Positions 804 through 59,169 of a DNA stretch of 64,000 bases are shown one piece after another. Where the stretch lies: the IMG/VR virus record IMGVR_UViG_3300003316_000080, positions 3,483 to 67,482 of that record; one strand, 5' to 3'. A model generated the notes under the pieces. It made no database searches. It was given only the letters and a program-made list of their open reading frames with translations, and had not been told where the DNA came from. This stretch comes from a virus. Each line of letters opens with the position of its first letter. Position 1 is the stretch's first letter. The position numbers and the translations under genes are program-made.

Positions 804-2255
804 GTGGAGATTCAAACCACGCTAGACGCAAGTCTGGCTGAGAACCTGTTGACGCTTCTGTGCTTTGACGACGAGCACTGCAAGCTGATCCGGTATGGGC
901 TGACGCCGCAGATGTTTGAATCGGCGGTGCTCAAGCAGATTGCCGGCGTCGCAATCGACTTCATCGATCAGTTTGGTGTCGCGGTCAAGGAGCACTTGCC
1001 CGACCACCTAGAAGACATCCTGAACGGTGAAGACCAGCGCAAGGCGAAGTCGTATCGGATGGTGCTGGAAAAGCTGTATGACTCGAAGGACGCGGTGAAT
1101 GCCGAGTTCGTCATGTCGCAGTTGCATGCATTCGTTCGCGCAGCCACGCTGAAGAGCGGACTGATGGACGCCGTTGCTCACATGGAGTCGGGCCGGATCG
1201 CGGAGTGCGAAACAGCCATGACGACAGCCTTGAGCCGTCAGGTGATTTCGTTCGAAGTGGGCACGCGACTGGACAATGCAGACAGCTTGTCGGAAGCGCT
1301 GACCAATCTGGAAGAACCGGGCTTCAACCTCGACATTGACGCTTTCGATCGCGTTGGTGCGATTCCACGCCGCAAGCAGCTGTCTGTGTTCTTGGCAGCA
1401 CGTGGCCGTGGTAAGTCATGGTGGTCGATCTACATGGGCAAGCAGGCGCTGCTGCAGCGCTGGTCCGTGCTGATTGTCACGTTGGAGTTGTCTGAGGCGT
1501 ACTACACGAAGCGCTTTCTGCAGTCGTTCTTCTCAATCTCGGACCGACAAGCCAAGGTGCTGGTGTCGGAGTTCAAGCGCGGACGTGATGGCTCGATCGT
1601 GGACGTCGTTCAGTCGGAACTGCACCGACGCACACTGCGTGACGATGACTCCTTGGAGTACATCGCAGCGCGAGCACGGCGCGAGTTCAAGCAACGCCCC
1701 CCGCTGATCATCAAGAACTTTCCTACAGCGACACTGACAGCTGAGACGCTGGAAGCGTATCTGGACGGTCTGCAGCGCCATCAGAACTTCACACCGGACC
1801 TGATCCTTGTCGACTATCCAGGCTTGATGAAGCTCGATCCCAAGAACAAGCGCATTGAGCTGGGATCGGCGGTGGAGCGTCTACGCGGCATTGCCGTAGC
1901 CCGCAACGCCCACATGGGGATCATGGCTCAGGGCAATCGTGAGTCGGAGACGGCACACACGGTCACGGCGGACATGACCGCCGAGGACATCTCGCTGTTG
2001 GCTACGGCTGACTTGTTCTTCACCTACAGCCAGACCAAGCTGGAGGAAAAGCTTAACCTCGCCCGCATCTTGTGTGAGAAGAACCGTAATGGTGTGGACG
2101 GCTTCGGGGCTCTGATCACACAAAGCTATGAGATCGGCCAGTTCTGCCTGGACTCCAGTCCGCTAGAAACTTCTTACTGGGAACTGGACGTGCACGAGCA
2201 GGAAGACGAGGACCGGCCGCGCCGCAAGAAGCGTCGCAACGAGGACGAAGAATGA
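804..2255 (+). CDS. DnaB-like replicative DNA helicase
   Basis: GTG start after AAGGA RBS; Walker A RGRGKS, DnaB-like Walker B LILVDYPGLM, MAQGNRE (H3-like). Confidence 0.7.
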   Translation: MEIQTTLDASLAENLLTLLCFDDEHCKLIRYGLTPQMFESAVLKQIAGVAIDFIDQFGVAVKEHLPDHLEDILNGEDQRKAKSYRMVLEKLYDSKDAVNAEFVMSQLHAFVRAATLKSGLMDAVAHMESGRIAECETAMTTALSRQVISFEVGTRLDNADSLSEALTNLEEPGFNLDIDAFDRVGAIPRRKQLSVFLAARGRGKSWWSIYMGKQALLQRWSVLIVTLELSEAYYTKRFLQSFFSISDRQAKVLVSEFKRGRDGSIVDVVQSELHRRTLRDDDSLEYIAARARREFKQRPPLIIKNFPTATLTAETLEAYLDGLQRHQNFTPDLILVDYPGLMKLDPKNKRIELGSAVERLRGIAVARNAHMGIMAQGNRESETAHTVTADMTAEDISLLATADLFFTYSQTKLEEKLNLARILCEKNRNGVDGFGALITQSYEIGQFCLDSSPLETSYWELDVHEQEDEDRPRRKKRRNEDEE

Positions 2256-3832: not shown

Positions 3833-3871
3833 TATACAATCTGCTGCAAGATAAACAAGAAGGCGGCAAAC

Positions 3872-5921: not shown

Positions 5922-6905
5922 GTGAGCAAGATCCAGAAAGAACTGCAGGACGTGACCGGCGTGAATCCGGCCGAGGACCAGTCGATCATCGACCCGGCCT
6001 ACATGAAGAAGGTCGTCAAGGCCGCTTCGAAGGACATTCCCGAGAAGGACTGGGACAAGCTGTCCGAGGAAGCCAAGGACTGGGTCAACGCGGCTGTGGA
6101 CGCGATGAACGAGCGCGAAGACATCAAGCCGTATCCCGACTACAAGGAACCGGCAAAGGAAGAGAAGAAGTCGACCCGCCGCCGCACCGATGATGACGAA
6201 GGCGACAAGCCGGCCGCTGCCGCCTACGCCGTCGGCGACGAGGTCGAAGTGACCAAGACCAACGGCAAGACCGTGGCCGGCGTCGTCAAGAACCTCGATG
6301 ATGACGGCGACCTCGTCCTCGAAGACGAAGAAGGTGAACTGGCCGTGCAGCTGAGCAAGATCGAGGCGGTCGTCGTGACCAAGGCCGCGAAGCCGGCCAA
6401 GGAGGAGAGCAAGCGTCGCCGCAACGATGACGACGAGGACGATGCGAAGGATGCGGGCCCCGGCGTCGGCGACGAGGTCAAGATCGTCAAGACCAACGAC
6501 CGCACCAACGAGGGTGTGATCACCTCGATCGACGAAGACGACATCGTCATCAAGGACGAAGACGGCGACGAGATCACGATCGCCCGCAGCAAGGTCAAGA
6601 CCGTCGAGATCATCAAGAAGGCGAAGAAGGCGTCTGCCAGCAAGTCCGACGTGAAGGACGACGCCAAGGACGACGAAGGCGACGGCAAGCGCAAGCGCGC
6701 CGGCAAGGGCGAGGATGGCGTGTCCGCCGCGCAGCGCGTCTTCGAGATCATGTGCGAAGACCCGCTGGACCCGCCCTCGCTGGAAGAACTGACCAAGCAG
6801 ATCCAGAAGGAAGGCCGCGACTGCAACGCCAACACGCTGAAGATCAACCACACGACCGCGTCGAAGATCTTCACGCTGCTGAAGGCCGGCAAGCACCTGA
6901 AGTGA
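5922..6905 (+). CDS. highly acidic protein with two tandem KOW-like repeats
   Basis: GTG start after AAGGAG; repeats GDEVEVTKTNGKTVAGVV.. and GDEVKIVKTNDRTNEGVI..; D/E-rich linkers. Confidence 0.6.
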   Translation: MSKIQKELQDVTGVNPAEDQSIIDPAYMKKVVKAASKDIPEKDWDKLSEEAKDWVNAAVDAMNEREDIKPYPDYKEPAKEEKKSTRRRTDDDEGDKPAAAAYAVGDEVEVTKTNGKTVAGVVKNLDDDGDLVLEDEEGELAVQLSKIEAVVVTKAAKPAKEESKRRRNDDDEDDAKDAGPGVGDEVKIVKTNDRTNEGVITSIDEDDIVIKDEDGDEITIARSKVKTVEIIKKAKKASASKSDVKDDAKDDEGDGKRKRAGKGEDGVSAAQRVFEIMCEDPLDPPSLEELTKQIQKEGRDCNANTLKINHTTASKIFTLLKAGKHLK

Positions 6906-6941
6906 TCGCCACACGGCAGCGCCCGCAAGGGCGTTGAACAG

Positions 6942-6977
6942 AGGGGCCCTGTATATTGCGGGGCCCCTTTTCTTTTG
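6942..6977 (+). terminator. rho-independent terminator
   Basis: GGGGCCC/GGGCCCC stem followed by TTTTCTTTT. Confidence 0.6.
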
Positions 6978-12375: not shown

Positions 12376-13601
12376 GAAACCGTGACGATGATGACCGTGG
12401 TTCGCGCCGTGGTCGCGATGATGACGATGACCGCCGCAGCAGCCGTGGCCGTGACAGCGGTTCGAGCCGTGGCGGTTTCGTCTACAAGCAGCGCAGCGCC
12501 GAAGAGAACCGCAAGCGCGCCGAGAACACCGGACGAGACTTCGAGTCGATTTACAAGGACGGTGTCAACCTATACAAGGTCAAGGACGGCGACAACAGCG
12601 TCCGTGTGCTGCCGCCGACGTTCAAGGGCGCCCAGCACTACGGACTCGACATCCAGGTCCACTTCGGCATCGGGCCCGACCGCGCGACGTACCTGTGCCT
12701 CAACAAGATGCTGGACAAGCCGTGCCCGATCTGCGAGGCACGCCAAGAAGCGCAGCGTGACGGGGACGACGAACTGGCGAAGGAACTGGCACCCAAGCAG
12801 CGTGTTCTCGTCGCCCTGATCGATCGTGATGATGAGAAGGCCGGTGTGCAGATCTGGGGCATGCCCTGGACCGTCGACCGTGACCTGGCCCAGGTTGCCG
12901 TCGATCGCAAGACCAAGGAAGTGCTGCCGATCGACCATCCTGAAGAAGGGTATGACGTCTTCTTCACGAAGACGGGCAAAGAGCGCAACACGAAGTACGG
13001 CGGCATCTCTGTGGACCGGCAGCCGTCAGAACTCGGCCGGCGCGGCGACGAGTGGCTGGACTGGATTCAGGAACACCCGCTGGACACGCTGCTGAACTAC
13101 GCCAGTTACGATGACATCGCCAAGGCGTTCAACGGCGGCGGCTCTGGTGGCGGTTCGCGTCGTCGCGATCGCAGCGATGACGACGATGACCGCTCTTCGC
13201 GTCGTGGCCGTGATCGTGACGATGACCGCAAGAAGGACGATGTCCTGTCGTGGGATGACGTTCACGGCATGAAGCCGCGCGAACTCGAAGACCTCGCAGC
13301 TGAGCACGGCATTAAGTCGTCCAAGTACGACGATGACGAAGAACTGGCTGACGCGATCTGTGAAAAGCTGGACATCAGCAAGCCCAAGCCGCGACGCTCG
13401 CCTGGACGTGATGGCGATGACGACGATGACCGCTCTTCGCGTCGTGGCCGTGATCGTGATGACGATTCCAATGAGAAGACGGCGCGTCGTCGGTCCAATG
13501 ATGACGACGAGGACGACACCCCGCGCACCCGTCGCCGTGAGGCCAATGACGACGATGACGCGGAAGAAGGTCTGCGCAAGATGCGCCGCCGCGCGGAGTG
13601 A
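12372..13601 (+). CDS. gp32-like single-stranded DNA-binding protein with Arg/Asp-rich repeat termini
   Basis: H-x12-C-x8-C-x2-C (HFGIGPDRATYLCLNKMLDKPCPIC) matches the T4 gp32 zinc-site pattern; located between clamp loader and RecA-like gene. Confidence 0.55.
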   Translation: MRNRDDDDRGSRRGRDDDDDRRSSRGRDSGSSRGGFVYKQRSAEENRKRAENTGRDFESIYKDGVNLYKVKDGDNSVRVLPPTFKGAQHYGLDIQVHFGIGPDRATYLCLNKMLDKPCPICEARQEAQRDGDDELAKELAPKQRVLVALIDRDDEKAGVQIWGMPWTVDRDLAQVAVDRKTKEVLPIDHPEEGYDVFFTKTGKERNTKYGGISVDRQPSELGRRGDEWLDWIQEHPLDTLLNYASYDDIAKAFNGGGSGGGSRRRDRSDDDDDRSSRRGRDRDDDRKKDDVLSWDDVHGMKPRELEDLAAEHGIKSSKYDDDEELADAICEKLDISKPKPRRSPGRDGDDDDDRSSRRGRDRDDDSNEKTARRRSNDDDEDDTPRTRRREANDDDDAEEGLRKMRRRAE

Positions 13602-14989: not shown

Positions 14990-15589
14990 ATGACCAGTAA
15001 AAAGTTACTGTGTGGAATCGATCCGGGCGCCAAGGGCGCCTTGGTCGTTTTGGATGAAGACGGCACGGTGATCGCGTGGTTGCTGATGCCCATGATCAAG
15101 CAGGGAACTCAGGAGCGTGTGAACGCTGCGGCTGTGGCGGCATTCCTGAAGCCCTATGCCGCCAACATCACAGCGAATCTCGAACTGGTCGGAGCAATGC
15201 CGGGTCAGGGCGTCGCCAGCATGTTCAGCTTTGGTCACTCGGCCGGCGTAGTTACTGGGGTACTGGGCGCACTGGAGATCCCTGTCACGCTGATCACGCC
15301 TCAGAAGTGGACGAAGCACTTCAACCTGGGTTCGAAGACAAAGAGCCCAGACCAAGCACGCGGCCTCGCAGCACGCTTCTGGCCCGCGTGGCGTGAACTT
15401 GACTTCAAGGGCAAAGGCGGTGCACTGGCAGACGCGGCGTTGATCGCGCGCTACAGCCTCGGACTCAATCGGGAAGCCATCGCGTATAACTCGGCACCGC
15501 GCAAGACGCGTCATGTGCTGAAAGAACTCGATGAAACTCCCCGCACTGCTGGTCGCCGACCTGCACCTGACGGCAAGCCCAGCCGATGA
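14990..15589 (+). CDS. RuvC-like Holliday junction resolvase
   Basis: N-terminal GIDPG, C-terminal ADAALIARY; RuvC-like size and layout. Confidence 0.7.
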   Translation: MTSKKLLCGIDPGAKGALVVLDEDGTVIAWLLMPMIKQGTQERVNAAAVAAFLKPYAANITANLELVGAMPGQGVASMFSFGHSAGVVTGVLGALEIPVTLITPQKWTKHFNLGSKTKSPDQARGLAARFWPAWRELDFKGKGGALADAALIARYSLGLNREAIAYNSAPRKTRHVLKELDETPRTAGRRPAPDGKPSR

Positions 15590-20651: not shown

Positions 20652-20881
20652 AGATCACTGACGTGTCCAACAAGAAGACAGTGGTGTGTGGCTTCACATG
20701 CTGGCATTGCCGCCGCGTGGTGTTATCTGGTGGCGCCGCTGAAGTCGTCGAGATCTCGATCAAGTTGCGGCCGGGCGCTGACAGACGTGAGCGTGCAAAC
20801 CGCCTGAGAATGGCCCGTGCTGAACTGCGCCATGCCCTTGCTATATTCCGCGCCAACAAAGAACTTGAGGACCTCGCATGA
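20648..20881 (+). CDS. small zinc-ribbon protein
   Basis: GTGA overlap upstream, ATGA overlap downstream; CGFTCWHC cysteine cluster. Confidence 0.4.
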   Translation: MKITDVSNKKTVVCGFTCWHCRRVVLSGGAAEVVEISIKLRPGADRRERANRLRMARAELRHALAIFRANKELEDLA

Positions 20882-23370
20882 GTGTGCGTTGTGTTGACTG
20901 CCTTGTGGGCCTGCGCCAGCTTCCAGATGCATCCGTTGATGCCATCGTCACGGATCCGCCCTACGGCCTGAGCGAGCAGAAGCCAGCGGAACTCGCTGCT
21001 TGCATCGCTGCATGGCTGGCCGGCGAGGTCTACCAGCCGAAGGGCAAGGGCTTCATGGGCAAGTCCTGGGACGCCTGGGTGCCTGGGCCCGAAGTCTGGC
21101 GCGAGTGCTTCCGCGTTCTCAAGCCGGGCGGACACATCCTGGCCTTCGCCGGCACGCGCACGCAGCACTTGATGGCGCTGTCGATGGCCCTGGCTGGATT
21201 CGAAATCAGGGACATGATCGCCTGGGTGTATGGCTCCGGGTTTCCGAAGTCGCTGGACGTGTCGAAGGCGGTCGACAAGGCAGGCGGAGCCTCGCCCGTC
21301 GAGCAGGCTGAACTGCTGCGCCGCAAGCGCGTGGCGGCCGGCCTGACGCGAGAGCAGGTCGCGGAACACTGCGGGTGCACTCCATCGAGCGTTCGAGACT
21401 GGGAAGAAGGCCGAGCGCGCGCCGTCGGTGCCGCCGTTGAGTTCATCGTCCCGAGCGACGAGTACCGCACCAAGCTGGCCGACTTGCTCGGTTACAGCGT
21501 GGACGAGCGCAAGCTGATTGGAACCTCGGCTGACCGGCGCGGCGATGGCACCGTCTACGGGGTGGGCCACAGCGGAGAGTTGCGCGCTGGCGGCAACACC
21601 GACGCTGCCCGCCAGTGGGAAGGCTGGGGCACCGCCCTGAAGCCGGCCCTTGAAACGGTTACTTTCGCTTCAAAGCCGTATACCGAAGAGCAGGAACGGA
21701 GTATAATTCAATCGAACCTAATTCGATTGGAGGCCCGTTTATGGTTGCTGTCGTCTGCGAGTGCTGCGGAAAAGAGTTCAACGTCAAGCCAAAGCGAGTA
21801 CGGCGCGGCGTGCGCTATTGCTCAATGGAGTGCCGACGAAATCACCAGTACACGGGCCGCTTTGTGCGGTCAGATGGATACGTCGCTGTTCGAGTGGGCA
21901 GCGACTACCAGCTTGAGCATCGTGTCGTCATGGAGGCGCACATTGGTCGAAAGCTGGAGCGATGGGAGCACGTCCACCACCGAAACGAAGTCAAACACGA
22001 CAACCGACTCGAGAACCTTGAAATTCTCACTGTCGCAGATCACGCCGAGCACCATCATCAAGGCCTGCAGCCTTCCCGGTGGGTTCAATGCGAATGCCTC
22101 CACTGCGGAAAGCCACTTCAACGCCTCGCTGTTGTTGTTGCAAAGCATCCGCACACTTTCTGCGACCGAGCCTGCTATATCGCAGGCGCAGCACGAACAC
22201 CTGGGCGCGGGCGTAAAGCCGAACCTTGATCCATGCATCATGGCGCGCAAGCCGCTGGTCGGAACGGTCGCGGCCAACGTTCTGGAGCACGGGACGGGGG
22301 CGCTGAATATCGACGGGTGCCGCGTGGGCGATGAGGAGCGGGTGAACGGCGCCGGATCTGTGACCTCGCTTCAGCGTCAATCACGGGTCGCGGCGGGATA
22401 CCGCGATGATGCTGGCGTTGGCCCAGGCTCTGACGCGAAGACCGTTGTTGGCCGTTGGCCCGCCAACCTGATCCACGACGGCAGCGACGAGGTGCTGGCG
22501 GCGTTCCCGAACGCGCCTGGTCAACTCGCGACGGCGAGCACCAGCGACACGCAGCGCTCCGGACAGAACACCTACGGTGCGATGACCCGTGGCAGCACGG
22601 GACAAGAACCGCGCGACGAGCTCGACAAGAGCGCCGCCCGATTTTTCAAGGAGTGTGCATGGGACGAACCTCGATCTGTTGCGAGCACTGCCGCGCAGCC
22701 TTTGTGCCTGCAAAACCAAGTCGCCGATTCTGTTCAGAGCGCTGCAGCAACTTGGGCCAGCCTCGCGGGAATACTCTCAAACGATTCGAAGGAACGTTCT
22801 ATGAACGTAACTCCGATCGAGTCAAGAGCGATCGCAGAAACCGTTATCACTGCGACGACGAGTATCGCAAGCGGGTTCTCGCTCGAGTCGCAGCACGAAA
22901 GGCTCACCCCGTGCCGCAGCCTTGTGAAGACTGTGGTGCGCCGAACGCCGATCGGCATCACGACGATTACGACAAGCCTCTCTCGATCCGATGGAAGTGC
23001 CGGAGCTGCCACGTTCACCATCACGCCGACGAGCTTGGATCGTGGGGATCTGGGCTCGCGGTTTGAGTACTGCGCCAAGGCTAGCAAGAAGGATCGCGGC
23101 GAGGGTAACAACCACCCTACTGTCAAGCCGACCGCGCTGATGCGGTATCTCGTCCGCCTTGTTACCCCTCCGGGTGGCACTGTACTTGATCCTTACACGG
23201 GCTCTGGTTCAACAGGAGTGGCCGCGCAAGCGGAAGGCTTCAAGTTCATCGGATTTGAGAATGACCCTGCTTCTTGTGCGATTGCAAACAGGCGAATGGG
23301 ACTCACGGGCCTGCTTGCTGTGAACAAAGAGCGCCGCCAGCTGCGTCTTCGCAAGCAGTTGATTGAGTGA
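20878..23370 (+). CDS. N6-adenine/N4-cytosine DNA methyltransferase (DPPY class), open frame interrupted by two HNH-gene inserts
   Basis: N-term VTDPPYGL; embedded XRE-like HTH; GWGTALKPA../..ARKPLVGTVAANVLEHGTGALNIDGCR; C-term HPTVKP and VLDPYTGSGSTG; 830-aa frame with no stop. Confidence 0.7.
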   Translation: MSVRCVDCLVGLRQLPDASVDAIVTDPPYGLSEQKPAELAACIAAWLAGEVYQPKGKGFMGKSWDAWVPGPEVWRECFRVLKPGGHILAFAGTRTQHLMALSMALAGFEIRDMIAWVYGSGFPKSLDVSKAVDKAGGASPVEQAELLRRKRVAAGLTREQVAEHCGCTPSSVRDWEEGRARAVGAAVEFIVPSDEYRTKLADLLGYSVDERKLIGTSADRRGDGTVYGVGHSGELRAGGNTDAARQWEGWGTALKPALETVTFASKPYTEEQERSIIQSNLIRLEARLWLLSSASAAEKSSTSSQSEYGAACAIAQWSADEITSTRAALCGQMDTSLFEWAATTSLSIVSSWRRTLVESWSDGSTSTTETKSNTTTDSRTLKFSLSQITPSTIIKACSLPGGFNANASTAESHFNASLLLLQSIRTLSATEPAISQAQHEHLGAGVKPNLDPCIMARKPLVGTVAANVLEHGTGALNIDGCRVGDEERVNGAGSVTSLQRQSRVAAGYRDDAGVGPGSDAKTVVGRWPANLIHDGSDEVLAAFPNAPGQLATASTSDTQRSGQNTYGAMTRGSTGQEPRDELDKSAARFFKECAWDEPRSVASTAAQPLCLQNQVADSVQSAAATWASLAGILSNDSKERSMNVTPIESRAIAETVITATTSIASGFSLESQHERLTPCRSLVKTVVRRTPIGITTITTSLSRSDGSAGAATFTITPTSLDRGDLGSRFEYCAKASKKDRGEGNNHPTVKPTALMRYLVRLVTPPGGTVLDPYTGSGSTGVAAQAEGFKFIGFENDPASCAIANRRMGLTGLLAVNKERRQLRLRKQLIE
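21741..22229 (+). CDS. HNH homing endonuclease nested in MTase gene
   Basis: Own GGAGG RBS; CxxC clusters; EHVHHRNEVKHDNRLENLEILTVADHAEHHH; +2 frame relative to MTase. Confidence 0.8.
   Translation: MVAVVCECCGKEFNVKPKRVRRGVRYCSMECRRNHQYTGRFVRSDGYVAVRVGSDYQLEHRVVMEAHIGRKLERWEHVHHRNEVKHDNRLENLEILTVADHAEHHHQGLQPSRWVQCECLHCGKPLQRLAVVVAKHPHTFCDRACYIAGAARTPGRGRKAEP
22659..23066 (+). CDS. HNH homing endonuclease nested in MTase gene
   Basis: AAGGAG RBS; CEDCGAPNADRHHDDYDKPLSIRWKCRSCHVHHH; +2 frame relative to MTase. Confidence 0.75.
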   Translation: MGRTSICCEHCRAAFVPAKPSRRFCSERCSNLGQPRGNTLKRFEGTFYERNSDRVKSDRRNRYHCDDEYRKRVLARVAARKAHPVPQPCEDCGAPNADRHHDDYDKPLSIRWKCRSCHVHHHADELGSWGSGLAV

Positions 23371-24747: not shown

Positions 24748-24981
24748 TCAGTTCTCCTTCACGATAGATTGCTTCAGTTGGGGATACTTTTCCTCCAAGT
24801 CGTCCAGCTGCTCGCGGGCGTGTTCACGTGTTTTCTCAAACACGGAGGTGAGCATGCTGGTCCATAGTGCATGACGCCGGCACGCCGACTCCCACATGCG
24901 CTGGTCGAAGGATTGGGCGAAGTCTTTGGGCACGGTGGTCCTGTCAGCGCGCTCTGATGCGCACCAGTATTCCCAAGCCAC
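24748..24981 (-). CDS. hypothetical protein, start uncertain
   Basis: C-terminal part looks coding and carries the RBS for the next gene; N-terminal limit unresolved (possible GTG at 24981). Confidence 0.3.
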   Translation of the reverse strand: MAWEYWCASERADRTTVPKDFAQSFDQRMWESACRRHALWTSMLTSVFEKTREHAREQLDDLEEKYPQLKQSIVKEN

Positions 24982-25270
24982 TGCCGCAGTACGTTGCGTG
25001 CACGCGGCATGCCTCTTCCAACGAGGCGCATTGCTGCAGGCGCGACCACGGGTGAAACCTGGACACACGCACTTGGACCTCCCAAGGAAACTGAAAGATG
25101 TGTTGCCGCTTGCGTTCAGCTTCACGATGCAATCGCTCCACAGCCTCAGTGGAGGATGGAAACCAGTCCTCCCACGAGGTGGGCTTGTGTGACGTGCCCC
25201 ATGCACCAGAGATCAGTGTCTGGATGTCCGCCAGGATTTGGTCACGCGATTTTTCGTCCCAGGTGGTCAT
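24944..25270 (-). CDS. hypothetical protein
   Basis: First gene downstream of the leftward promoter element at ~25300. Confidence 0.4.
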   Translation of the reverse strand: MTTWDEKSRDQILADIQTLISGAWGTSHKPTSWEDWFPSSTEAVERLHREAERKRQHIFQFPWEVQVRVSRFHPWSRLQQCASLEEACRVHATYCGSGLGILVRIRAR

Positions 25271-25296: not shown

Positions 25297-25356
25297 GGAG
25301 ATTGTATATAAACTTCAAGCCAGAACGCAAGCACTTTCTTAGAAACTTTTTACTGC
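25297..25356 (-). promoter_or_regulatory. conserved ~60-bp leftward promoter element (copy 1 of 3)
   Basis: Minus strand reads CAGTAAAAAGTTTCT, then TTGCGT-N18-TACAAT; near-identical elements at 59170-59217 and 62156-62213. Confidence 0.5.
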
Positions 25357-25526
25357 CCTCTACAATGAGCCACCTGACCTGCTGCGCGTGGCGGTCTGGG
25401 GTGGAAGGTGATCCAGCATCAGGCTGGTGACTACAGGGGCGCCAGCTTCTAACGAACTTCCACGCTCACGTGTGCCCGGCGGTGGGTTGCCGTCGGGCTC
25501 TTTTACACAGAATCGTTGGGGGTTGT

Positions 25527-26962: not shown

Positions 26963-27181
26963 ATGATCGACAGACGCACGCTGAGGCAAAGTGACCCCAA
27001 CAGTCTGGCGTCGCGTATCTGTGCCTTCTTCTCCAACAATCCCGACGAGATGCTCACGTACAGCGACATTGCTGTGAAGTTTGACTGTACGGTTGAACAA
27101 GCTCGCAATGCTGTGAATGATCTACGCAAGAGGAAGAAGGGCGTAGACACCAGTCACATCGTACACAGAGCGGGTCAGTAA
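26963..27181 (+). CDS. hypothetical protein, possible winged-helix DNA-binding
   Basis: AGGAGTG RBS; helix-turn-helix-like LTYSDIAVKFDCTVEQARNAVNDL. Confidence 0.4.
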   Translation: MIDRRTLRQSDPNSLASRICAFFSNNPDEMLTYSDIAVKFDCTVEQARNAVNDLRKRKKGVDTSHIVHRAGQ

Positions 27182-27192
27182 AAACTTTCTGG
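27176..27192 (+). promoter_or_regulatory. palindromic CAGTAAA..TTTCTG motif
   Basis: CAGTAAAAACTTTCTGG overlapping the stop of 26963..27181. Confidence 0.4.
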
Positions 27193-27501: not shown

Positions 27502-27921
27502 ATGGACGAAAAACGCAAACGTGGTCGGCCGGCTGGAGCAATGAACAAGCTCAGTCAGGAGGCTGTCAACCTCGCAAAGCAGACAGGTAAGTTGCCCCAT
27601 GAGATCTTGCTAGAGATCGCACGGGGCAATCCCATTTGTGTGCTGAGTATGGAAGAAGGCGTTCTGAAGCCTGTCTATGTCATGACAGATCCTGCACAGG
27701 TGCTTGATGCAGCAAAGGCAGCAGCACCGTACTTCGCGCCGAAGATTTCTACAGTTGAAGTGATTGCAGGGGTATCTGACCATGAACTTGATCGCATCAT
27801 TGCGCTCGCTGCCGCCGAAGCAGGCATTAGCCTTGGCGCTAGCGGAGAAGGCGAAGAGACAGAGGAAGAGGAACCAACTGAGCGAAGCAGCCGAAAGGGC
27901 CGTAGACAGCTACGCGAGTGA
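27502..27921 (+). CDS. terminase small subunit
   Basis: N-terminal KRKRGRPAG DNA-binding-type motif, PYFAPK motif, acidic tail; directly upstream of large terminase. Confidence 0.6.
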   Translation: MDEKRKRGRPAGAMNKLSQEAVNLAKQTGKLPHEILLEIARGNPICVLSMEEGVLKPVYVMTDPAQVLDAAKAAAPYFAPKISTVEVIAGVSDHELDRIIALAAAEAGISLGASGEGEETEEEEPTERSSRKGRRQLRE

Positions 27922-29629
27922 AGCAGAGGGGCCTCCTGTCCCTCTGCAGGTTTCCTCAGTCGTACTAGACGACACGCACGTAATCAGCCAACTGCTTACA
28001 ACAGGCAAGTTGTGTGCGGGTCCGTCTGCACAGCACATCCGCTACAAGATCTACTGGGGCGGTCGTGGTGCTGTGAAGTCGTGGGGCATGGCAGAAGCAC
28101 TAGTACGTCTGGCAGCTGCCAAGCCTCTACGCATACTGTGCTGCCGTGAGTTTCAGAACTCGATCAAGGACAGTGCACACAAACTGCTGAAAGACACGAT
28201 CGAGAGACTTGGTCTGTCTACGTGGTTCACTGTCACTGCCGACAGCATCAAGTCTCGTGTCGGTGCAGAGTTCATGTTCAAAGGCCTGCACAACAACGAG
28301 AACGGCATCAGGTCGACTGAAGGCGTAGATATCTGCTGGGTGGAAGAAGCACACAGCGTTACTGCACTTAGCTGGCAGAGCCTACTGCCCACGATCCGTG
28401 GTGACGAGTCAGAGATCTGGATCTCGTTCAACATGGTCGAAGAGAGTGATGCTACGTACCAGATGTTCGTAGCAAATGAACGCCCTCACTCGATCGTTCA
28501 CCACATCAATTACGACAGCAATCCGTTCCTACCGAAAGTGCTCCGTGATGAAATGGAGCACGACAAGAAGACGGACTACGCGCTGTACGAGCACATCTGG
28601 CTGGGCAAGCCTCGCAAGCGTAGTAACGCAATCGTCCTCAACGGCAAGTACCGCATTGAGGAATTCCCAGATGATCTGTACGAACACGCAGATAGGTTGT
28701 TCTTCGGTGCTGACTGGGGCTATGCAGAAGATCCGTCCACGCTGGTGCGTTGCTTCATCCTGAACAACAAGCTGTACATCGAGTACGAGGCATACGGCAA
28801 GCACATCGAACTGAACGACTACGCTGCGTTCTATGACCAAGTGCCCGGGTCACGTGACTGGCCTATCTATGCCGACAGCGCGTTGCCAGCAACGATCTCG
28901 CATGTGCGCGGTCTGGGCTTTGCGATCGATGCGGCAGAGAAGTGGCCGGGCAGTGTCGAAGACGGCATCAAGCATCTGCGGGGGTACGACGAGATCATCA
29001 TTCACCCGCGCTGCAAGATGGCGGCCGACGAGGCTTACAAGTGGCGGTACAAGGTCGACAAGAAGGTGCTGGATGCCAACATGCAGCCACTCGTACTGCC
29101 CACGCTGGTAGACGCACACAATCACTGCATTCCGGCTGGCGTGCTTGTGTCTACTGCGTGTGGCGATGTGCCTATTGAGCAAGTACAAGTAGGCGACCTC
29201 GTGTGGACGCGTGTTGGTCTGCGTCCTGTGTTGTGGGCAGGTGCCACAGACACGAACCGTGAAGTGCTGGAGATCACGTTGTCATCTGGTCATGTAGTGC
29301 GCTGCACTCCTGACCACGAAGTCTTCGTGAATGGTGAGTTCATTCGTGCAGACGCTGCTCAGGTGTCTGACAACATGAACACACTCGACAGCACGGCACA
29401 TGGCAGGCGAATTGGCACTGCGTCTGTAGTCTCTATCACTCGCATCGCGGAAAAGGCTGATGTTGTCTATGACGTAACGGTCGATGGACAACACGAGTTC
29501 TTCGCGAATGGTGTGCTGGTTCACAACTGCTGGGACGCGGTCCGGTACGCCCTACATGGCTACATCCCCAGATCGGGTGAGATGGGCGTGTGGAACAGAC
29601 TAGGCGCCCAAGCTCTGGGACAATCCTGA
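27782..29629 (+). CDS. terminase large subunit, intein-containing
   Basis: Walker A-like YWGGRGAVKS, C-terminal nuclease domain; start uncertain (first in-frame ATG overlaps TerS by ~140 nt). Confidence 0.8.
   Translation: MNLIASLRSLPPKQALALALAEKAKRQRKRNQLSEAAERAVDSYASEAEGPPVPLQVSSVVLDDTHVISQLLTTGKLCAGPSAQHIRYKIYWGGRGAVKSWGMAEALVRLAAAKPLRILCCREFQNSIKDSAHKLLKDTIERLGLSTWFTVTADSIKSRVGAEFMFKGLHNNENGIRSTEGVDICWVEEAHSVTALSWQSLLPTIRGDESEIWISFNMVEESDATYQMFVANERPHSIVHHINYDSNPFLPKVLRDEMEHDKKTDYALYEHIWLGKPRKRSNAIVLNGKYRIEEFPDDLYEHADRLFFGADWGYAEDPSTLVRCFILNNKLYIEYEAYGKHIELNDYAAFYDQVPGSRDWPIYADSALPATISHVRGLGFAIDAAEKWPGSVEDGIKHLRGYDEIIIHPRCKMAADEAYKWRYKVDKKVLDANMQPLVLPTLVDAHNHCIPAGVLVSTACGDVPIEQVQVGDLVWTRVGLRPVLWAGATDTNREVLEITLSSGHVVRCTPDHEVFVNGEFIRADAAQVSDNMNTLDSTAHGRRIGTASVVSITRIAEKADVVYDVTVDGQHEFFANGVLVHNCWDAVRYALHGYIPRSGEMGVWNRLGAQALGQS
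29126..29527 (+). mobile_element. mini-intein within terminase large subunit (134 aa)
   Basis: Begins CIPAGVLV (block A), TPDH (block B), ends GVLVHN followed by +1 Cys; no endonuclease domain. Confidence 0.7.
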
Positions 29630-32461: not shown

Positions 32462-32572
32462 ATGAAATGGATGTACCGCTTCGGCCTCGCGGCCGTGCTC
32501 GCCTTCGTCTCTTCCCTCGGGCATGTCCAGGCCACGGACGCACACCCACAAGCACAGACAGCGCGGCAGTAA
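32462..32572 (+). CDS. small secreted peptide (36 aa) with signal peptide
   Basis: AGGAGA RBS; MKWMYRFGLAAVLAFVSSLGHVQA then TDAHPQAQTARQ; too short for the ORF track. Confidence 0.35.
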   Translation: MKWMYRFGLAAVLAFVSSLGHVQATDAHPQAQTARQ

Positions 32573-32584
32573 ACAGTTTCTGCC
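32565..32584 (+). promoter_or_regulatory. palindromic CAGTAAA..TTTCTG motif
   Basis: GGCAGTAAACAGTTTCTGCC followed by TATATAGGG. Confidence 0.4.
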
Positions 32585-32633
32585 GTATATAGGGCGCGGG
32601 AGCGATCTTGCGCCCTTTCCTTTTGGAGAACTC

Positions 32634-33625: not shown

Positions 33626-33642
33626 TCGACACTTGACCACCG

Positions 33643-33672
33643 AGGGCCCGTATACCTGCGGGCCCTTTTCAT
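33643..33672 (+). terminator. rho-independent terminator
   Basis: GGGCCCG...CGGGCCC stem followed by TTTTCATTT; same hairpin family as 6942-6977. Confidence 0.6.
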
Positions 33673-37255: not shown

Positions 37256-37342
37256 GGGCCGGTTGACACGTGGGGTCACCGGCCCTTGTTTTATGTTCTC
37301 GCGGGATATCTATAATCCCTGCCACCAGTAAAAAGATTCAGG
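37256..37342 (+). promoter_or_regulatory. hairpin plus promoter-like region upstream of head genes
   Basis: GGGCCGGT/ACCGGCCC hairpin containing TTGACA, then TATAAT (37311-37316), then CCAGTAAAAAGATTCAGG (37325-37342). Confidence 0.4.
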
Positions 37343-38854: not shown

Positions 38855-38872
38855 GCAGTAAACAGTTACTGC
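38855..38872 (+). promoter_or_regulatory. perfect palindrome GCAGTAAACAGTTACTGC
   Basis: Sits 1 nt after the protease/scaffold stop and upstream of 38899. Confidence 0.45.
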
Positions 38873-39635: not shown

Positions 39636-40856
39636 ATGAAATTCCCGAAGATCTTCACGCCGAAGCGCTCCATCGTGCGCGTGGTGCGTGGTCACATGAC
39701 TGGCGACAACGGCAGCGCCCTTGCGGCACTGCTGGCCGGCGCCGGTCACAACACCTTCGACGCCAACGCGGTCGGCGCGCTGCTGGCCGCTCCGACGGCC
39801 TCGATCGATCTGTACGGCAACCAGCGCGGCCACACCCTGCAACACCCGGTGCAGATCAAGACCGCTGACGGCCAGATGCGCACGGTCGACTCGACCGGCG
39901 CCTTCATGGTCGGTGAGCTGGAGCGCCTCGACCCGACCATGAACATGCCGCTGGTCGACGTGTCATGGTCGCGTGACATCGACCTGCGCGAAGACGTGTC
40001 GCTGGCCGACGAACTGTCGTCGTACACGCTGAGCCAGATCGCGGCGGCTGGTGGCCTCGCTGCCGGCGCCGGCATCCGCAACGGTAAGGCGTGGATCGGT
40101 AAGGTGTCCAACCAGATCGGCGGCGTGTCCGTCGACATCTCGAAGATCACCAACCCGCTGACGCTCTGGGGCATGGAAGTCAAGTACTCCATCCCGGAAC
40201 TGGAGAGCGCCGCGCGCGCCGGTCGTCCGATCGATGAACAGAAGCTGGAGGGCCTGCGCCTGAAGCAGCAGATGGACGTCGACGAGCAGGTCTACGTGGG
40301 TGACGCCCAGATCAACGTGGGCGGCCTGTGCAACCACTCGCTGGTCACCAACGTCGCCAACCTGCCCAACGGTGCGGGCGGCTCGCCGCGCTGGTCCCTG
40401 AAGACGGCCGATGAGATCCTGACGGACGTCAACGCGATCCTGACCTCCGCGTGGCGCGCGTCAGGCTACGCGCAGATCCCCAACCGCCTGCTGCTGCCGC
40501 CCACCGTGTTCGGCATGCTGACGACCCGGATCGTGTCGTCTGCCGGCTCCGTCTCGATCCTGCGGTACCTGCTGGAGAACAACATTCTTACCAAGCAGGG
40601 CAAGGGTGATCTGGAGATCTTCCCGGTCAAGTGGCTGGTCGGCTGCGGCGTCGGCGGCACCATCGGCACGGAAGGCGGTGTCGACCGCATGGTGGCGTAC
40701 CGCAAGGACAAGCGTCTGGTGCGCTTCCCCATGACCGGCCTGCAGCGCACCCCGGTGCAGTTCTCGTCGATCTACCACAGCACGACGTACTTCAACCGCC
40801 TCGGCGTCGTCGAGTTCGTCTACCCGGAGACGGCGGCCTACAGAGACGGTCTCTAA
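39636..40856 (+). CDS. major capsid protein
   Basis: AAGGAA RBS; ~406 aa; follows protease/scaffold as in XkdF/XkdG-type head modules. Confidence 0.6.
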   Translation: MKFPKIFTPKRSIVRVVRGHMTGDNGSALAALLAGAGHNTFDANAVGALLAAPTASIDLYGNQRGHTLQHPVQIKTADGQMRTVDSTGAFMVGELERLDPTMNMPLVDVSWSRDIDLREDVSLADELSSYTLSQIAAAGGLAAGAGIRNGKAWIGKVSNQIGGVSVDISKITNPLTLWGMEVKYSIPELESAARAGRPIDEQKLEGLRLKQQMDVDEQVYVGDAQINVGGLCNHSLVTNVANLPNGAGGSPRWSLKTADEILTDVNAILTSAWRASGYAQIPNRLLLPPTVFGMLTTRIVSSAGSVSILRYLLENNILTKQGKGDLEIFPVKWLVGCGVGGTIGTEGGVDRMVAYRKDKRLVRFPMTGLQRTPVQFSSIYHSTTYFNRLGVVEFVYPETAAYRDGL

Positions 40857-40877
40857 TGTGAATTCATAGTGTACCAT

Positions 40878-40903
40878 GGGGACCTTTTCACAAGGAGGTC
40901 CCC
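40878..40903 (+). promoter_or_regulatory. hairpin sequestering the RBS of the GIY-YIG gene
   Basis: GGGGACC...GGTCCCC stem; 3' arm contains the AAGGAGG RBS, ends at the ATG. Confidence 0.45.
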
Positions 40904-41569
40904 ATGGACACAAGAGTTCGCAAGGTTTACGCGTTGATGGACCCACGTGGGGCTGTAACCAGCGTCCGATATGTCGGGTGCACGCTTCAGAAGATTCTGA
41001 ACAGGTTGCAGTCCCACATTTACGAAGCAGAGACGAGTCCTGATGTCACACCAAAGCTTGTGTGGTTGCGAGCGCTGGCCGACGCGGGTTTAAAGCCTCT
41101 GATCGTGCACTTGGAAACAGTGGCACCTGAAGACGACTGGCAAGAGCGTGAGAAGTACTGGATCGCGAAATACAGCGGACCTGAATTGCTCAACACAACG
41201 ACAGGTGGTATCGGGGCACAGGGTTTAGCCCAAGATGTTCGTGATCGAATTTCGGAAGCGCTGCGCGGTCGTAGCCTGAGTGAAGAGCACAAAGCAAAGC
41301 TACGGAAGAACGCAGCAGAGAACCCATACAAGCACACAGAAGAAGCGAAGCGCGCTATCTCGGAGTCCAAGAAAGGTCTGAAGTTAGGACCCTTGTCCAA
41401 CGAAGCCAAGCAGAAACTGCGTGATGCCATGGGCTCTCTGGTGTGGATCACCAACGGGCGGGAAAACCGACGTGTGAAAGCAGATGCCATTCCGGCTGGG
41501 TGGCAGAAGGGGCGAGCCCCAAAGGACCAGCCAAAGCAATCACGCCGCGTACTTCGCGACGACCTTTAA
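40904..41569 (+). CDS. GIY-YIG homing endonuclease with NUMOD3-like repeats
   Basis: KVYALMDPRGAVTSVRYVGCT (GIY-YIG); C-terminal repeats HKAKLRK, EEAKRAISESKKG, NEAKQKLRDAMG. Confidence 0.8.
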   Translation: MDTRVRKVYALMDPRGAVTSVRYVGCTLQKILNRLQSHIYEAETSPDVTPKLVWLRALADAGLKPLIVHLETVAPEDDWQEREKYWIAKYSGPELLNTTTGGIGAQGLAQDVRDRISEALRGRSLSEEHKAKLRKNAAENPYKHTEEAKRAISESKKGLKLGPLSNEAKQKLRDAMGSLVWITNGRENRRVKADAIPAGWQKGRAPKDQPKQSRRVLRDDL

Positions 41570-43975: not shown

Positions 43976-45481
43976 ATGGCAACCACGCCCGTTCAATTAC
44001 CGCTGTCTCGTCTGATCAACGTCGCTGTTGTTCTGACCGCAGCAGCTGCTCAAGCGCAGAACCTGTCGACCCTGCTCATCCTGGGCACGTCATCTGTGAT
44101 CGACACCGTGACGCGCCAGCGCGATTACGAATCCCTCACCGATGTCGGCGCCGATTTCGGCAGCAGCGCACCTGAATATCTGGCCGCCCAGATCTACTTC
44201 GCGCAGTCGCCTCAGCCCACCACGCTGAAGATCGGCCGCTGGTTCCTGACGGCCGCTGCGGGCTCGCTGGTGGGTAAGACACTGAGCGCGGCTGAACAGA
44301 CACTGGCGAACTTCACTGCCGTGACCTCGGGTGGTTTCACCTACACCAAGAACGGCGGCGCTCCGACCAACGTGACGGGCATCAATCTGTCCACGGCAAC
44401 CAACCTCAACGCGGTTGCCTCGCTGATCACGGCGGCGCTCACGGGTGCCACGATGGTCTGGAATGCGCAGTACCAGCGCTTCGAACTGACTTCGGCCGCC
44501 ACCGGCGCGACTTCAGCGATCAGCTTTCTGACGGCGCCGGGCTCTGGCACCGACATCAGTGCACTGCTGGGCATGACGGCCGCATCGTCGGGTGCCTACC
44601 AAGCGCCCGGTGCTGACGCAGAAACGCCGATCGCCGCAGTAACGTTGTTCGAGCAGAACTGGGGCCAGACGTGGTACGGCCTGCAGATGCTGGGTATCAG
44701 CGGTGGCGGCGCAACTGCTGACCATCTCGCTGTCGCTCAGTTCATCGAAGGCACGAACACGAAGCACGTGTACGGCATCACGACTCAGGATGCAGCGGCC
44801 CTCGTGCAGGGCAACACCACCAACGTCGGTGCGGTCATGAAGGCCAACGGCCTAGACAAGACGATGGTGCGCTATTCGTCGAAGTCGCCGTATGCGGTCG
44901 CAACTGACTTCGGCCGCATGCTGACGGTGAATTACAACGGCGAAAACACCGTCATCACGATGATGTACAAGCAGACGCCGGGGCTGGAGGCTGAGGCCAT
45001 CAACAGCACGCAGGCGAACGCGCTGCAGTCCAACAACATCAACGTGTCGGCGGGCTACTCGAACGGCACCGCAATCACGCAGTACGGCGTCATGTCGTCG
45101 GGTGAATACATCGACACGATCTTTGGCATCGACTGGCTCGCGGTGACCGTGCAGACGAATCTGTACAACGCCCTGTACACGACGACCACGAAGATCCCCC
45201 AGACCGACGCCGGTCAGAACCTCCTGAACACCAAGGTGGAAGAGGTCTGCCAACAGGGTGTGACCAACGGTCTGCTGGCACCGGGCGTGTGGAACGCAAC
45301 AGGCTTCGGCACGCTGAAGCAAGGCGACTACATGGAGAAGGGCTACTACGTGTACAGCGCTCCGATGCGCACGCAGAACCAGTCCGATAGGCAAGCACGC
45401 AAGTCGATGCCGATCCAGGCCGCTGCCAAGCTCGCTGGTGCGATCCACACGGTGCAACTGACCGTTACCGTCAACCAGTAA
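43976..45481 (+). CDS. tail sheath protein
   Basis: ~500 aa Thr/Ala/Gly-rich protein immediately upstream of tube and chaperone genes. Confidence 0.6.
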   Translation: MATTPVQLPLSRLINVAVVLTAAAAQAQNLSTLLILGTSSVIDTVTRQRDYESLTDVGADFGSSAPEYLAAQIYFAQSPQPTTLKIGRWFLTAAAGSLVGKTLSAAEQTLANFTAVTSGGFTYTKNGGAPTNVTGINLSTATNLNAVASLITAALTGATMVWNAQYQRFELTSAATGATSAISFLTAPGSGTDISALLGMTAASSGAYQAPGADAETPIAAVTLFEQNWGQTWYGLQMLGISGGGATADHLAVAQFIEGTNTKHVYGITTQDAAALVQGNTTNVGAVMKANGLDKTMVRYSSKSPYAVATDFGRMLTVNYNGENTVITMMYKQTPGLEAEAINSTQANALQSNNINVSAGYSNGTAITQYGVMSSGEYIDTIFGIDWLAVTVQTNLYNALYTTTTKIPQTDAGQNLLNTKVEEVCQQGVTNGLLAPGVWNATGFGTLKQGDYMEKGYYVYSAPMRTQNQSDRQARKSMPIQAAAKLAGAIHTVQLTVTVNQ

Positions 45482-45507
45482 GAACTTTCATCTGAAGGAG
45501 AGCCACC

Positions 45508-46658: not shown

Positions 46659-48104
46659 ATGGCAGCTGGTTCCTCTGAAGTCCTGCGCGAGTATCTGATT
46701 CGTCTGGGCTTCCAGATCGACCAGCGCGGCCAACGCAACTTCGACACGGCAACGGTCAACATCCAGAAACGCGTGATGGGAATCGCGCAGGCTGTGACCG
46801 CCGTGACGGGTGCTGCAACCGCAATGGTTGTCTCGTACACCCGCGACATGGAGAAGATGTATTACGCCTCCCGTAAAGCGGAGGCGCCTGTCGCAGCGCT
46901 GAACAACCTCGCATACGGATACCGTCAGATCGGACTGGATGGTAAACAGGCGATTGCCACAGTCGAAGGCATTGCACGCAGCATGCGCAGCAACCCGGGC
47001 TTGACGGCATTGCTGAAGGACCTGGGAGTGCCCGTGCAGGGCCGCACCAAAGATCAGGTACTGCTGGACCTCGTCGGTGCCTTGCGCAAGATGCCTGAGC
47101 ACATCGCCATCCAGTACGGCAACCTGTTTGGGATCGACCCTGATCAGCTGAAACTTCTTACTGAAGGCTATGACAAGTTGCTGGCTGCTGAGAAGCAGCG
47201 CCAGATGATGACGCAGGGTCTGAACATCGATACAGAGGCAGCGGCAAAGGCTGCTGTCGAATATGCGAATGCACTCGACAAGGTGACGGAGCGCGCCAAG
47301 ATCCTGTTTAGCGTCATTTCCGTTGGCATGCTGCCTTACTTCAAGCAGATGACGTCCAATCTGGACGAGATGCTGAAGAGCATGACACGCGTCGCTGCTT
47401 TTGCTCAAAAGGCCACGCCTGCTGAATTCTGGGCAGAGACGAAGAATCAGGCCCGGCTGCTGTGGGAGACGCTGTCGGGCAGTCGCGGCAGTGTGACGCT
47501 GAGCCCGCGAGCCCAGGCGCAGAAGGACACAGCAGGCTTGTCGGGCCTCCCCGCCCTCCCACCAGGGCCGCCAGCGCCAGCTGGCAATTTGCCCCTAGGC
47601 CTGCGGAACAACAATCCTGGCAACTTGCGCGCCGGCTTGGGTCAGACGGGCATGAACCGGGGGTTCGCAACTTTCGACACGCCGGAGCAGGGCCTTGCTG
47701 CAATGGCGCGGCAGCTACTGCTGTACCAGAACCGCGACGGCCTCAAGAACATCTCGCAGATCATCAAGAAGTACGCACCGGCCAGCGAGAACAACACACA
47801 GGCATACATCGACGCAGTAACGAAGGCGACAGGCTTCAACTCTCAGGAGTACATTGACCTCAACGCGACAGGCAATCTGGCCGCGATCATGGAGGCCATG
47901 GTCAAGCACGAGAATGGGCGCAATCCGTTCTCGTCTGCCCAGTTTGAGACAGCGGCACGTCAGGGTGCCGCCTTCCAGCAGCAGACCAATATCACCGTCT
48001 ATGGCGCCACAGACCCCACAGCAACGGCAAATGCCATCGGCGGTCAGCAGCGCTCTGTCAACTCCGATCTGATGCGTCAGATGGGCACACGCAAGGTGGA
48101 ATAA
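46659..48104 (+). CDS. tail tape measure protein
   Basis: AAGGAG RBS; long helical protein following chaperone pair. Confidence 0.55.
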   Translation: MAAGSSEVLREYLIRLGFQIDQRGQRNFDTATVNIQKRVMGIAQAVTAVTGAATAMVVSYTRDMEKMYYASRKAEAPVAALNNLAYGYRQIGLDGKQAIATVEGIARSMRSNPGLTALLKDLGVPVQGRTKDQVLLDLVGALRKMPEHIAIQYGNLFGIDPDQLKLLTEGYDKLLAAEKQRQMMTQGLNIDTEAAAKAAVEYANALDKVTERAKILFSVISVGMLPYFKQMTSNLDEMLKSMTRVAAFAQKATPAEFWAETKNQARLLWETLSGSRGSVTLSPRAQAQKDTAGLSGLPALPPGPPAPAGNLPLGLRNNNPGNLRAGLGQTGMNRGFATFDTPEQGLAAMARQLLLYQNRDGLKNISQIIKKYAPASENNTQAYIDAVTKATGFNSQEYIDLNATGNLAAIMEAMVKHENGRNPFSSAQFETAARQGAAFQQQTNITVYGATDPTATANAIGGQQRSVNSDLMRQMGTRKVE

Positions 48105-59141: not shown

Positions 59142-59169
59142 GTTGTTGCTCCAATGAGAAAGGGTGCAG

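Follow-up and report, generated by a model that had tools for sequence, protein, structure and literature searches.

The 64,000-nucleotide (nt) stretch of viral DNA analyzed here, referred to as the window, corresponds to positions 3,483 to 67,482 of the IMG/VR record IMGVR_UViG_3300003316_000080, that is, to 64 of the 67.5 kb of a 67,482-bp genome, with about 3.4 kb lying outside it, and its G+C content is approximately 59%. On its minus strand are three near-identical promoter-like elements, here called A, B, and C, each of which contains a copy of a 16-bp pseudo-palindrome, CAGTAA-N4-TTwCTG (the box), and it is this box, at the three elements and elsewhere in the window, that the present analysis concerns. 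The elements had been pointed out in an earlier note made from the sequence alone, and they are real: CAGTAAAAAGTTTCT occurs exactly on the minus strand at 25341-25355, 59201-59215, and 62198-62212, and a -10 module, GTTTRTATAYAATCTC, is likewise exact at 25298-25313, 59169-59184, and 62158-62173, with seven matches to this module against 0.22 expected when up to three mismatches are allowed.

Element A consists of box A (CAGTAAAAAGTTTCTA, 25340-25355, minus strand, 27.9 bits) and a promoter core (25301-25330, minus strand) made up of TTGCGT (25330-25325), an 18-nt spacer, and TACAAT (25306-25301), which heads a leftward operon of ORFans running from 25270 to 23539 whose first gene (24944-25270, minus strand) encodes a 108-aa ORFan. 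In element B, the box (CAGTAAAAAGTTTCTT, 59200-59215, minus strand, 34.0 bits) begins 1 nt past the TGA stop codon of the gene at 59217-59666 and overlaps the -35 hexamer of a core (59172-59201, minus strand) with the structure TTGTAG (59201-59196), 18 nt, TATAAT (59177-59172), the -10 of which sits between the inverted repeats GGTGCAGAG and CTCTGCACC; the first gene behind it (58671-59141, minus strand) encodes a 156-aa ORFan with an N-terminal hydrophobic segment. The operon transcribed from C includes box B. Element C combines box C (CAGTAAAAAGTTTCTG, 62197-62212, minus strand, 35.0 bits) with the core TTGCAA (62188-62183), 16 nt, TACAAT (62166-62161) (62161-62188, minus strand; 9/12 consensus positions), followed by the gene of a 68-aa ORFan (61908-62114, minus strand). 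The terminator reported ahead of C is also confirmed: the intrinsic terminator of a ParB-like gene (62237-62265, minus strand; 11-bp stem followed by TTTTTT) stands 18 nt upstream of box C, and its stem shows compensatory changes in a relative. Behind each element there is a Shine-Dalgarno (SD) sequence and an ATG, with start codons at 25270, 59141, and 62114.

The promoter layout described previously, with TTG at the -35, a spacer of 16 to 18 nt, a near-consensus TACAAT or TATAAT, and an intergenic location ahead of an SD sequence and ATG, holds for all three elements. The -35-like hexamers themselves stand only in part, since all three begin with TTG but agree with TTGACA at just three of six positions in A and B and at four in C, and a consensus scan that requires at least 4/6 at the -35 lists C alone of the three. 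The gap of about 20 nt that had been given between box and -35 is not found, the actual values being 10 nt in A, 9 nt in C, and a 1-nt overlap in B. We observe that the three elements can be aligned, with A and C being approximately 80% identical over about 75 nt, including the spacer and the early transcribed region, and with B missing some 11 nt between box and core. The distance from the start of the box to the start of the -35 is 25 nt in A, 24 nt in C, and 14 nt in B, which are one helical turn apart, and the box is centered near -52 in A and C and near -42 in B. The A/T tracts of an upstream (UP) element lie at about -57 to -47 and -46 to -38 from the transcription start, and the A5 tract of the box, at about -55 to -51 in A and C and -45 to -41 in B, falls on the distal (A and C) or the proximal (B) subsite positions of that consensus.

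Judging from these sequence features, the real and nonrandom elements A, B, and C are very probably paralogous sigma-70-type early promoters for the host RNA polymerase, and the operons of small ORFans behind them are probably early genes. A fourth copy of the core (TTGAGA-17-TACAAT, GTTGATATACAATCTG, 3812-3840, plus strand, 10/12) precedes the primase gene and has no box, indicating that core and box are separable modules. Furthermore, in the nearest isolate, Edwardsiella phage vB_EpM_ZHS (OM621816), a 71-kb phage with 54% identity in the portal and the same gene order, parB is flanked by two promoter elements of some 57 bp (58543-58600 and 61247-61304) that are identical to one another, each located after a terminator and reading ATTTTTGGCAACAAAGGTG-TTGCGC-17-TAGAAT followed by CGCAT, for which the window equivalent is gAAAGTGC-TTGCrn...TAyAAT-CTCCGCAT. 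Shared between the two phages are the -35 context AAAG(G)TGyTTGC, an A/T-rich palindromic spacer and -10 region, CGCAT after the -10, a terminator before the promoter, and an orphan parB in the early region. Since the early region of vB_EpM_ZHS duplicates the same type of promoter, this type appears to be conserved across the group, and its multicopy state is not unique to the phage studied here. In contrast to the box of the window, the upstream A/T tract of vB_EpM_ZHS, ATTTTTGGCAAC, is not dispersed, and a CAGTAA box is found nowhere in that genome. The -35/-10 spacers of vB_EpM_ZHS each contain a perfect 10-bp palindrome, CTTTATAAAG.

The earlier note had confined the box to the three leftward elements, which is not the case: with up to three mismatches, we find 16 matches in the window against 0.47 expected, all of which keep CAGTAA, and the symmetric form CAGTAA-N4-TTACTG gives 14 matches with up to two mismatches against 0.57 expected. 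Words from the box are the most overrepresented 10-mers of the window (five copies versus 0.03 expected under a third-order Markov background, P ~1e-10), and a position weight matrix separates 12 strong sites with scores of at least 25 bits, where about 0.5 is expected, from the next best site at 20.7 bits. CAGTAA, A9, and TTTC are invariant or nearly so, with TTTCTG rather than TTACTG as the consensus right half, and perfect half-sites are present in three copies, at 14995 and 38856 with a 4-nt spacer and at 55740-55756 with a 5-nt spacer. With respect to placement, 10 of the 12 strong sites are located at gene boundaries in a window that is 90% coding (binomial probability ~1e-7), and the seven boundary sites that are asymmetric all run in the direction of local transcription, with CAGTAA on the upstream side, the three other sites being symmetric. 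Three or four strong copies adjoin promoters, whereas at least nine further strong copies, mostly on the plus strand at middle or late gene boundaries, have no sigma-70 core behind them, which means that the box neither defines A, B, and C nor can be an UP element only. A repeat finder run on the window and on a relative (L075) returned only coding low-complexity families.

Outside the three elements, the box at 14995-15010 (plus strand; CAGTAA-AAAG-TTACTG, CAGTAAAAAGTTACTG) has perfect half-sites and spans codons 2 to 7 of a RuvC-like gene, with a start codon that an independent gene prediction supports. The TAA of the box serves as the stop codon of the upstream gene at three sites, namely, at 27176-27191 (plus strand), where it ends the gene at 26963-27181 and the 3' end of the box touches the SD sequence of the gene at 27200; at 45476-45491 (plus strand), where it ends the open reading frame (ORF) at 43976-45481, a tail sheath gene by position match to ZHS_19, and is followed by an ORF (45508) assigned as the tube gene by synteny with vB_EpM_ZHS; and at the symmetric CAGTAA-N5-TTACTG site at 55740-55756, where it is the stop codon of the tailspike gene and a hairpin adjoins. 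Several structural assignments used here (sheath, tube, and baseplate) are position matches to the vB_EpM_ZHS annotation. The box at 38856-38871 (plus strand; CAGTAA-ACAG-TTACTG, CAGTAAACAGTTACTG) again has perfect half-sites and is situated between the DUF2213 and cement-protein genes. No core promoter is visible at 14995, 27176, 38856, 45476, or 55740-55756. At 37326-37341 (plus strand), before the DUF2213 head gene, the box starts 8 nt past a perfect TATAAT and would occupy approximately +1 to +16 of this promoter-like site (37311-37316); the -10 of the 37311 promoter is surrounded by an inverted repeat that we take to be incidental, as the relative contig L159 (see below) does not share it. 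At 32567-32582 (plus strand), the box is followed 3 nt on by TATATA and then by a terminator-like hairpin and an SD sequence with an ATG at 32634. The two remaining strong copies are intragenic and antisense, at 2164-2179 (minus strand) within a DnaB-like gene and at 47148-47163 (minus strand) within the gene at 46659-48104.

Two side observations concern these neighborhoods. The plus strand at site A carries TTAGAA-16-TACAAT (-10 at 25361-25366) with box A in the spacer and TACAAT 5 nt past the box, and a strong terminator-like hairpin (25474-25498, plus strand) is located about 110 nt on from this TACAAT, directly ahead of the gene that opens the late block (25527), so that the layout of 25356-25526 on the plus strand recalls lambda PR'-tR'. 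Similar intergenic modules, in which a G+C-rich hairpin and a T-run are followed by GGAGAA and an ATG, are found at 6940-6970, 32591-32616, and 33642-33667 (plus strand), with TATAyy in the hairpin loop (6952 and 33651) or just 5' of the hairpin (32586); the window has only 42 TATA sites, about 16 of which are intergenic, with intergenic DNA making up 10% of the sequence. These modules may represent additional promoters in which a terminator and a -10 element overlap.

A relative from another sample, represented by contigs L159 and L160, has 78% amino acid identity in DUF2213 and 86% in ParB. In L159, the 37326 site is identical at every base, including those that deviate from the consensus, and the TATAAT and the terminator ahead of it are retained as well, while the intervening DNA diverges. 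The 38856 site retains both half-sites in L159 with a changed N4, as expected for a dimer-type operator, and its TAA is a stop codon there. In addition, the relative has an extra, weaker copy of the box at a place where the window has none. The picture differs at site C: on the short L160 contig, which has only 380 nt downstream of parB, the homology downstream of this gene (87.8%) ends at 62231, just past the terminator, and another gene replaces box C, promoter C, and the 68- and 77-aa ORFans. Since the sites are kept but the site-C cassette is replaced, the box family appears to be under selection, with promoter cassettes being gained and lost at the terminator boundary. Beyond this relative, the box is absent from 44 IMG/VR loci and 80 metagenome loci around homologous portals, and scanning IMG/VR for the exact 16-mer yielded just 29 matches, all of them single and chance-like.

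The invariant half-site, the dyad symmetry, the free spacer, the intergenic placement, the polarity, and the variable distance to promoters lead us to read the box as a putative operator of a sequence-specific DNA-binding protein, one that coincides with UP positions in A, B, and C; we give this reading a probability of roughly 0.45. The copies, with their statistics, positions, orientation, and conservation, suggest a phage-wide DNA-binding regulator that has not been described previously and that is probably phage encoded, and from the DNA sequence we infer that a protein binds the box, in which direction it may regulate, and which protein it might be. The proposal of a common regulator or UP-like element made in the earlier note thus survives in part: the A-tract does fall on UP-subsite positions, but the box is an independent, genome-wide pseudo-palindrome. 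The phage-specific transcription program proposed along with it is likewise something that we infer. In the absence of the protein, the A-tract of the box would act in an UP-like manner at the contact positions of the C-terminal domain of the RNA polymerase alpha subunit (alpha-CTD), and the bound protein would either displace the alpha-CTD, leading to early shut-off, or recruit it. Elsewhere, the same protein may sit on or next to weaker promoters, at about +1 to +16 at 37326 and inside the -35/-10 spacer at 32567 and, on the plus strand, at 25340-25355, and where a gene junction has no promoter, it might serve as a polar roadblock or use the box as a loading site, as with stoperators and KorB operators.

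Several findings weigh against an operator. No box binder was found among the window proteins scanned (about 70, a subset of the ORFs); a box centered at -52 does not have the position of a classical repressor site; a roadblock within its own late operon is hard to justify for a virulent-looking phage; at least seven copies have no recognizable promoter nearby; both intragenic copies are antisense; the orientation statistic comprises seven sites only; box C is missing from L160; and the part of related genomes that matches the missing 3.4 kb holds the first early gene (HTH protein, for helix-turn-helix). As for host factors, sites for IHF, Fis, CRP/FNR, LexA, and TyrR were compared by eye, and none fits an invariant CAGTAA.

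The stoperators of Cluster A mycobacteriophages offer a comparison, being short sites at the early promoter and in short intergenic gaps with an orientation tied to transcription (PMC9283540). Like these targets of L5 gp71-type repressors, the box is multicopy, with most strong copies at gene boundaries and some at promoters; in orientation, its seven asymmetric boundary copies follow transcription, two intragenic copies are antisense, and three copies are symmetric. In contrast, stoperators are 13 bp long, fully asymmetric, and bound by a monomeric immunity repressor in temperate actinophages, whereas the box is a 16-bp pseudo-palindrome that lies upstream of the -35 at A and C, not on it, in a phage that looks virulent and belongs to a Gram-negative-type myovirus group. 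To our knowledge, temporal transcription control has not been described for this large, mostly uncultured group of 57- to 72-kb myoviruses, which apparently lack an RNA polymerase of their own and for which one conserved site at early promoters and a dozen gene junctions provides a concrete, testable handle.

A weak candidate for the binder is the orphan ParB-like protein encoded at 62313-63284 (minus strand), about 100 nt upstream of box C, which contains a GKRR motif (DGKRRMAAI) and an HTH_ParB domain (1.4e-7) and aligns to the DNA-binding domain of Caulobacter ParB; its homologs carry PF02195, and its HTH region has hardly changed in the relative in which the boxes are retained. We consider the 68-aa ORFan encoded behind promoter C an unlikely binder, since it is lost with the cassette at this locus in that box-keeping relative. 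KorB, a ParB-family CTPase of plasmid RK2, uses OB operators that are scattered at variable promoter distances, sometimes with no promoter near (PMC11790492), and the likeness is that a protein with a ParB-fold HTH is encoded on the same element as a pseudo-palindromic, scattered site that could be its target. The two cases differ in that no ParA and no KorA-like partner was found in the window, that no ParA-like ATPase is located next to parB, that the consensus box is asymmetric, and that KorB serves plasmid partition and regulation. In its most specific form, the operator reading would have the ParB-like HTH protein, or another conserved early protein, load at the at least 12 polar boxes and control transcription genome-wide by shutting off UP-dependent early promoters and gating read-through at gene junctions, which we regard as quite unlikely. 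Distant relatives that keep ParB were found to lack a comparable dispersed motif (10-mer counts, Markov-corrected 10-mers, and half-site/spacer palindrome scans), which counts against the operator reading as a whole. If the specific form is true, it would amount to KorB- or stoperator-like global regulation in a lytic-type phage outside the actinophages, and the box would hint at a possible role for the orphan ParB-like genes present in many virulent phages. More generally, if the box is a polar roadblock or a clamp-loading operator, mechanisms so far tied to temperate actinophages and to one plasmid family would extend to lytic phages.

The alternative that fares best, though we still consider it unlikely, is that the box acts during or after transcription, at the level of the RNA or of the elongation complex, as a target of RNA processing or of a translational regulator or as an ops/nut-like signal for pausing or antitermination that is read on the nascent RNA or the non-template strand, in which case the boxes at A, B, and C would be secondary and belong to the end of the preceding cistron. 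The geometry of the boxes is in line with this: they are co-oriented, sit in tiny gaps between cistrons and often across a stop codon (27176, 45476, 55740, and position 2293 of L159), and precede the next ATG by 9 to 28 nt, and the 37326 box would form the very 5' end of an mRNA started from the conserved TATAAT. Box B, as noted, is within the operon transcribed from C, and the AAG|UUU of the box would fit the RN|WUU preference of RNase E. However, two of the three leftward boxes would be poorly transcribed, box A for being in a divergent intergenic region with no upstream gene on the minus strand and box C for following a strong terminator, and the two intragenic strong copies run antisense to their genes. 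Palindromic half-sites with a fixed CAGTAA are, moreover, more typical of a site in duplex DNA, and most copies are unfolded, have halves without compensatory variation, and match no Rfam family. In the specific case of an RNA hairpin, which we rejected, the folding energies of most copies, including A, B, and C, are between about 0 and -3.7 kcal/mol, no better than those of shuffled sequences, and among the copies for which folding was computed, only the perfect palindromes at 14995 and 38856 form a hairpin; the degenerate right half opposite an invariant left half, the near-zero folding energy, and the lack of covariation between the halves make such a structure unlikely.

We regard as rather improbable that the box has a nontranscriptional role in DNA, either as a set of dispersed parS-like loading sites for ParB (in condensation, positioning, or protection) or as targets of nicking or base modification. 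Palindromes of 16 bp are the usual targets of ParB proteins, and the gene for the ParB-like protein is close to box C, with an HTH that is nearly invariant where the boxes are kept; yet centromere or modification sites would not be expected to be intergenic and co-oriented with genes, no ParA was found in the window, and the ParB-bearing relatives have no dispersed palindrome. Phage proteins with a ParB fold have been tied to DNA modification, but those proteins lack a DNA-binding domain (PMC13229309), whereas the protein encoded here has one, and this difference makes a link to thymine-dioxygenase activation unlikely. Among the proteins scanned, there are no modification genes except a methylase.

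About as improbable is a third alternative, in which the box itself is a compact promoter or specificity element for middle and late genes, read by host RNA polymerase that a phage factor redirects, and in which the leftward elements would be tandem promoters, one phage specific and one of the sigma-70 type. Short conserved promoters with short leaders are known from T4 late and T7-like systems, and the box is the most overrepresented oriented word of the window and directly precedes the small gene ahead of the terminase, the DUF2213 gene, the cement-protein gene, and the putative tube gene. Against this, a start at the 14995 box would lose the ATG of the RuvC-like gene, the leader at 27176 would shrink to some 9 nt, a box is missing at the major capsid gene and the putative sheath gene, and dyad symmetry is unusual for a promoter. 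Furthermore, the roughly 70 window proteins that were scanned, a subset of the ORFs, include neither a phage RNA polymerase nor a sigma factor, and none is annotated in vB_EpM_ZHS. Least credible is that no specific factor is involved and the box is an A/T-rich UP-like module of a duplicated cassette, with the other copies being decayed remnants or chance: AAAAAGTTT at -55 to -47 and GAAAG at -43 to -39 in A and C and the A-tract of B at -45 to -41 do fit the UP subsites, as they resemble the A/T tracts near -52 and -42 of strong sigma-70 promoters, and vB_EpM_ZHS has a T-tract at the same place without CAGTAA, but the other copies are far beyond chance and kept in a relative while their flanks diverge, UP elements have no dyad and are expected in promoters only, not at nine or more junctions without a core, and the alpha-CTD does not need the invariant CAGTAA.

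Returning to the promoter cassettes, we note their similarity to the promoter-early/stem-loop (PeSL) cassettes of T4-like phages (PMC2839356 and PMC4122927), which are also near-identical early cassettes among ORFans, with element C consisting of a terminator stem-loop and then a promoter exactly at an indel boundary. They differ in that the phage group is another one, that A and B have no stem-loop, and that PeSLs are not accompanied by a dispersed, promoter-less box. The single boundary seen in L160 suggests that PeSL-like recombination may occur at the cassette. The promoter cassettes are in themselves ordinary and serve as useful markers of early operons and of indel hot spots.

With respect to the genome as a whole, a rightward replication module encodes an exonuclease, DnaB, SNF2, primase, clamp, PolA with a uracil-DNA glycosylase (UDG) domain, and clamp loader and continues with a single-stranded-DNA-binding protein (SSB), RecA-like and RuvC-like proteins, SbcCD, and an HTH-methylase. 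It is followed by the small leftward operon at 23.5 to 25.3 kb, by a rightward block from 25.5 to 57.4 kb (terminase with a probable intein, portal, DUF2213, sheath, baseplate, tailspike, and lysis genes), and by a leftward ORFan block from 64 to 57.4 kb that includes the orphan ParB-like, MazG-like, and DnaJ-domain proteins. Nearly all small proteins scanned are ORFans, the window contains no tRNAs or Rfam families, and the phage looks virulent in that neither an integrase nor a repressor turned up among the proteins scanned from 64 of the 67.5 kb. None of the GenBank phages is close to the window at the DNA level; the myovirus group to which it belongs is found in soil, in freshwater, and among Burkholderiales-type prophage relatives. 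Searches of genome contigs with DUF2213 returned only Burkholderiales prophage-type loci (34 to 50% identity), those with the MazG-like protein returned no matches, a protein database compared with the joined ORFan sequences gave no match either, and a search of IMG/VR with the ParB-like protein returned one locus (36% identity).

Several further observations were made along the window. The large terminase ORF (27764-29629, plus strand) shows Intein_splicing (1.4e-12), Hint_2, and PT-HINT matches after Terminase_3 (Pfam), and the gene therefore probably holds an intein. Within the gene at 20878-23370, which encodes an 830-aa protein with HTH and N6/N4 methylase domains, 759 bp (21597-22355) have 90.9% DNA identity to a methylase of Cylindrospermopsis phage Cr-LKS3, which is probably a recent horizontal transfer, since the rest of the 12 kb searched has no comparable match to a GenBank phage. 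A 221-aa gene with a low coding score (40904-41569) follows the ORF at 39636-40856, the major capsid gene by synteny with L159, and is missing in this close relative, where 57 nt stand in place of 40858-41563; it looks like a moron-like insertion. In the replication module, a 327-aa protein (5922-6905, plus strand) has subthreshold KOW/SH3-like matches (KOW7_SPT5, 1.5e-4) and highly charged repeats and could be a nucleic-acid- or polymerase-binding factor, and the SSB-like gene (12379-13559, plus strand) contains imperfect direct repeats that encode Arg/Asp-rich low-complexity segments, including the family D1 of 52-nt units that are up to 96% identical. Finally, CAGATACGCGA occurs exactly four times, at 90, 17669, 27011, and 56259, on both strands and mostly within genes, with near-copies at 27907 and 57672, so that six copies with at most one mismatch are present against 1.08 expected.

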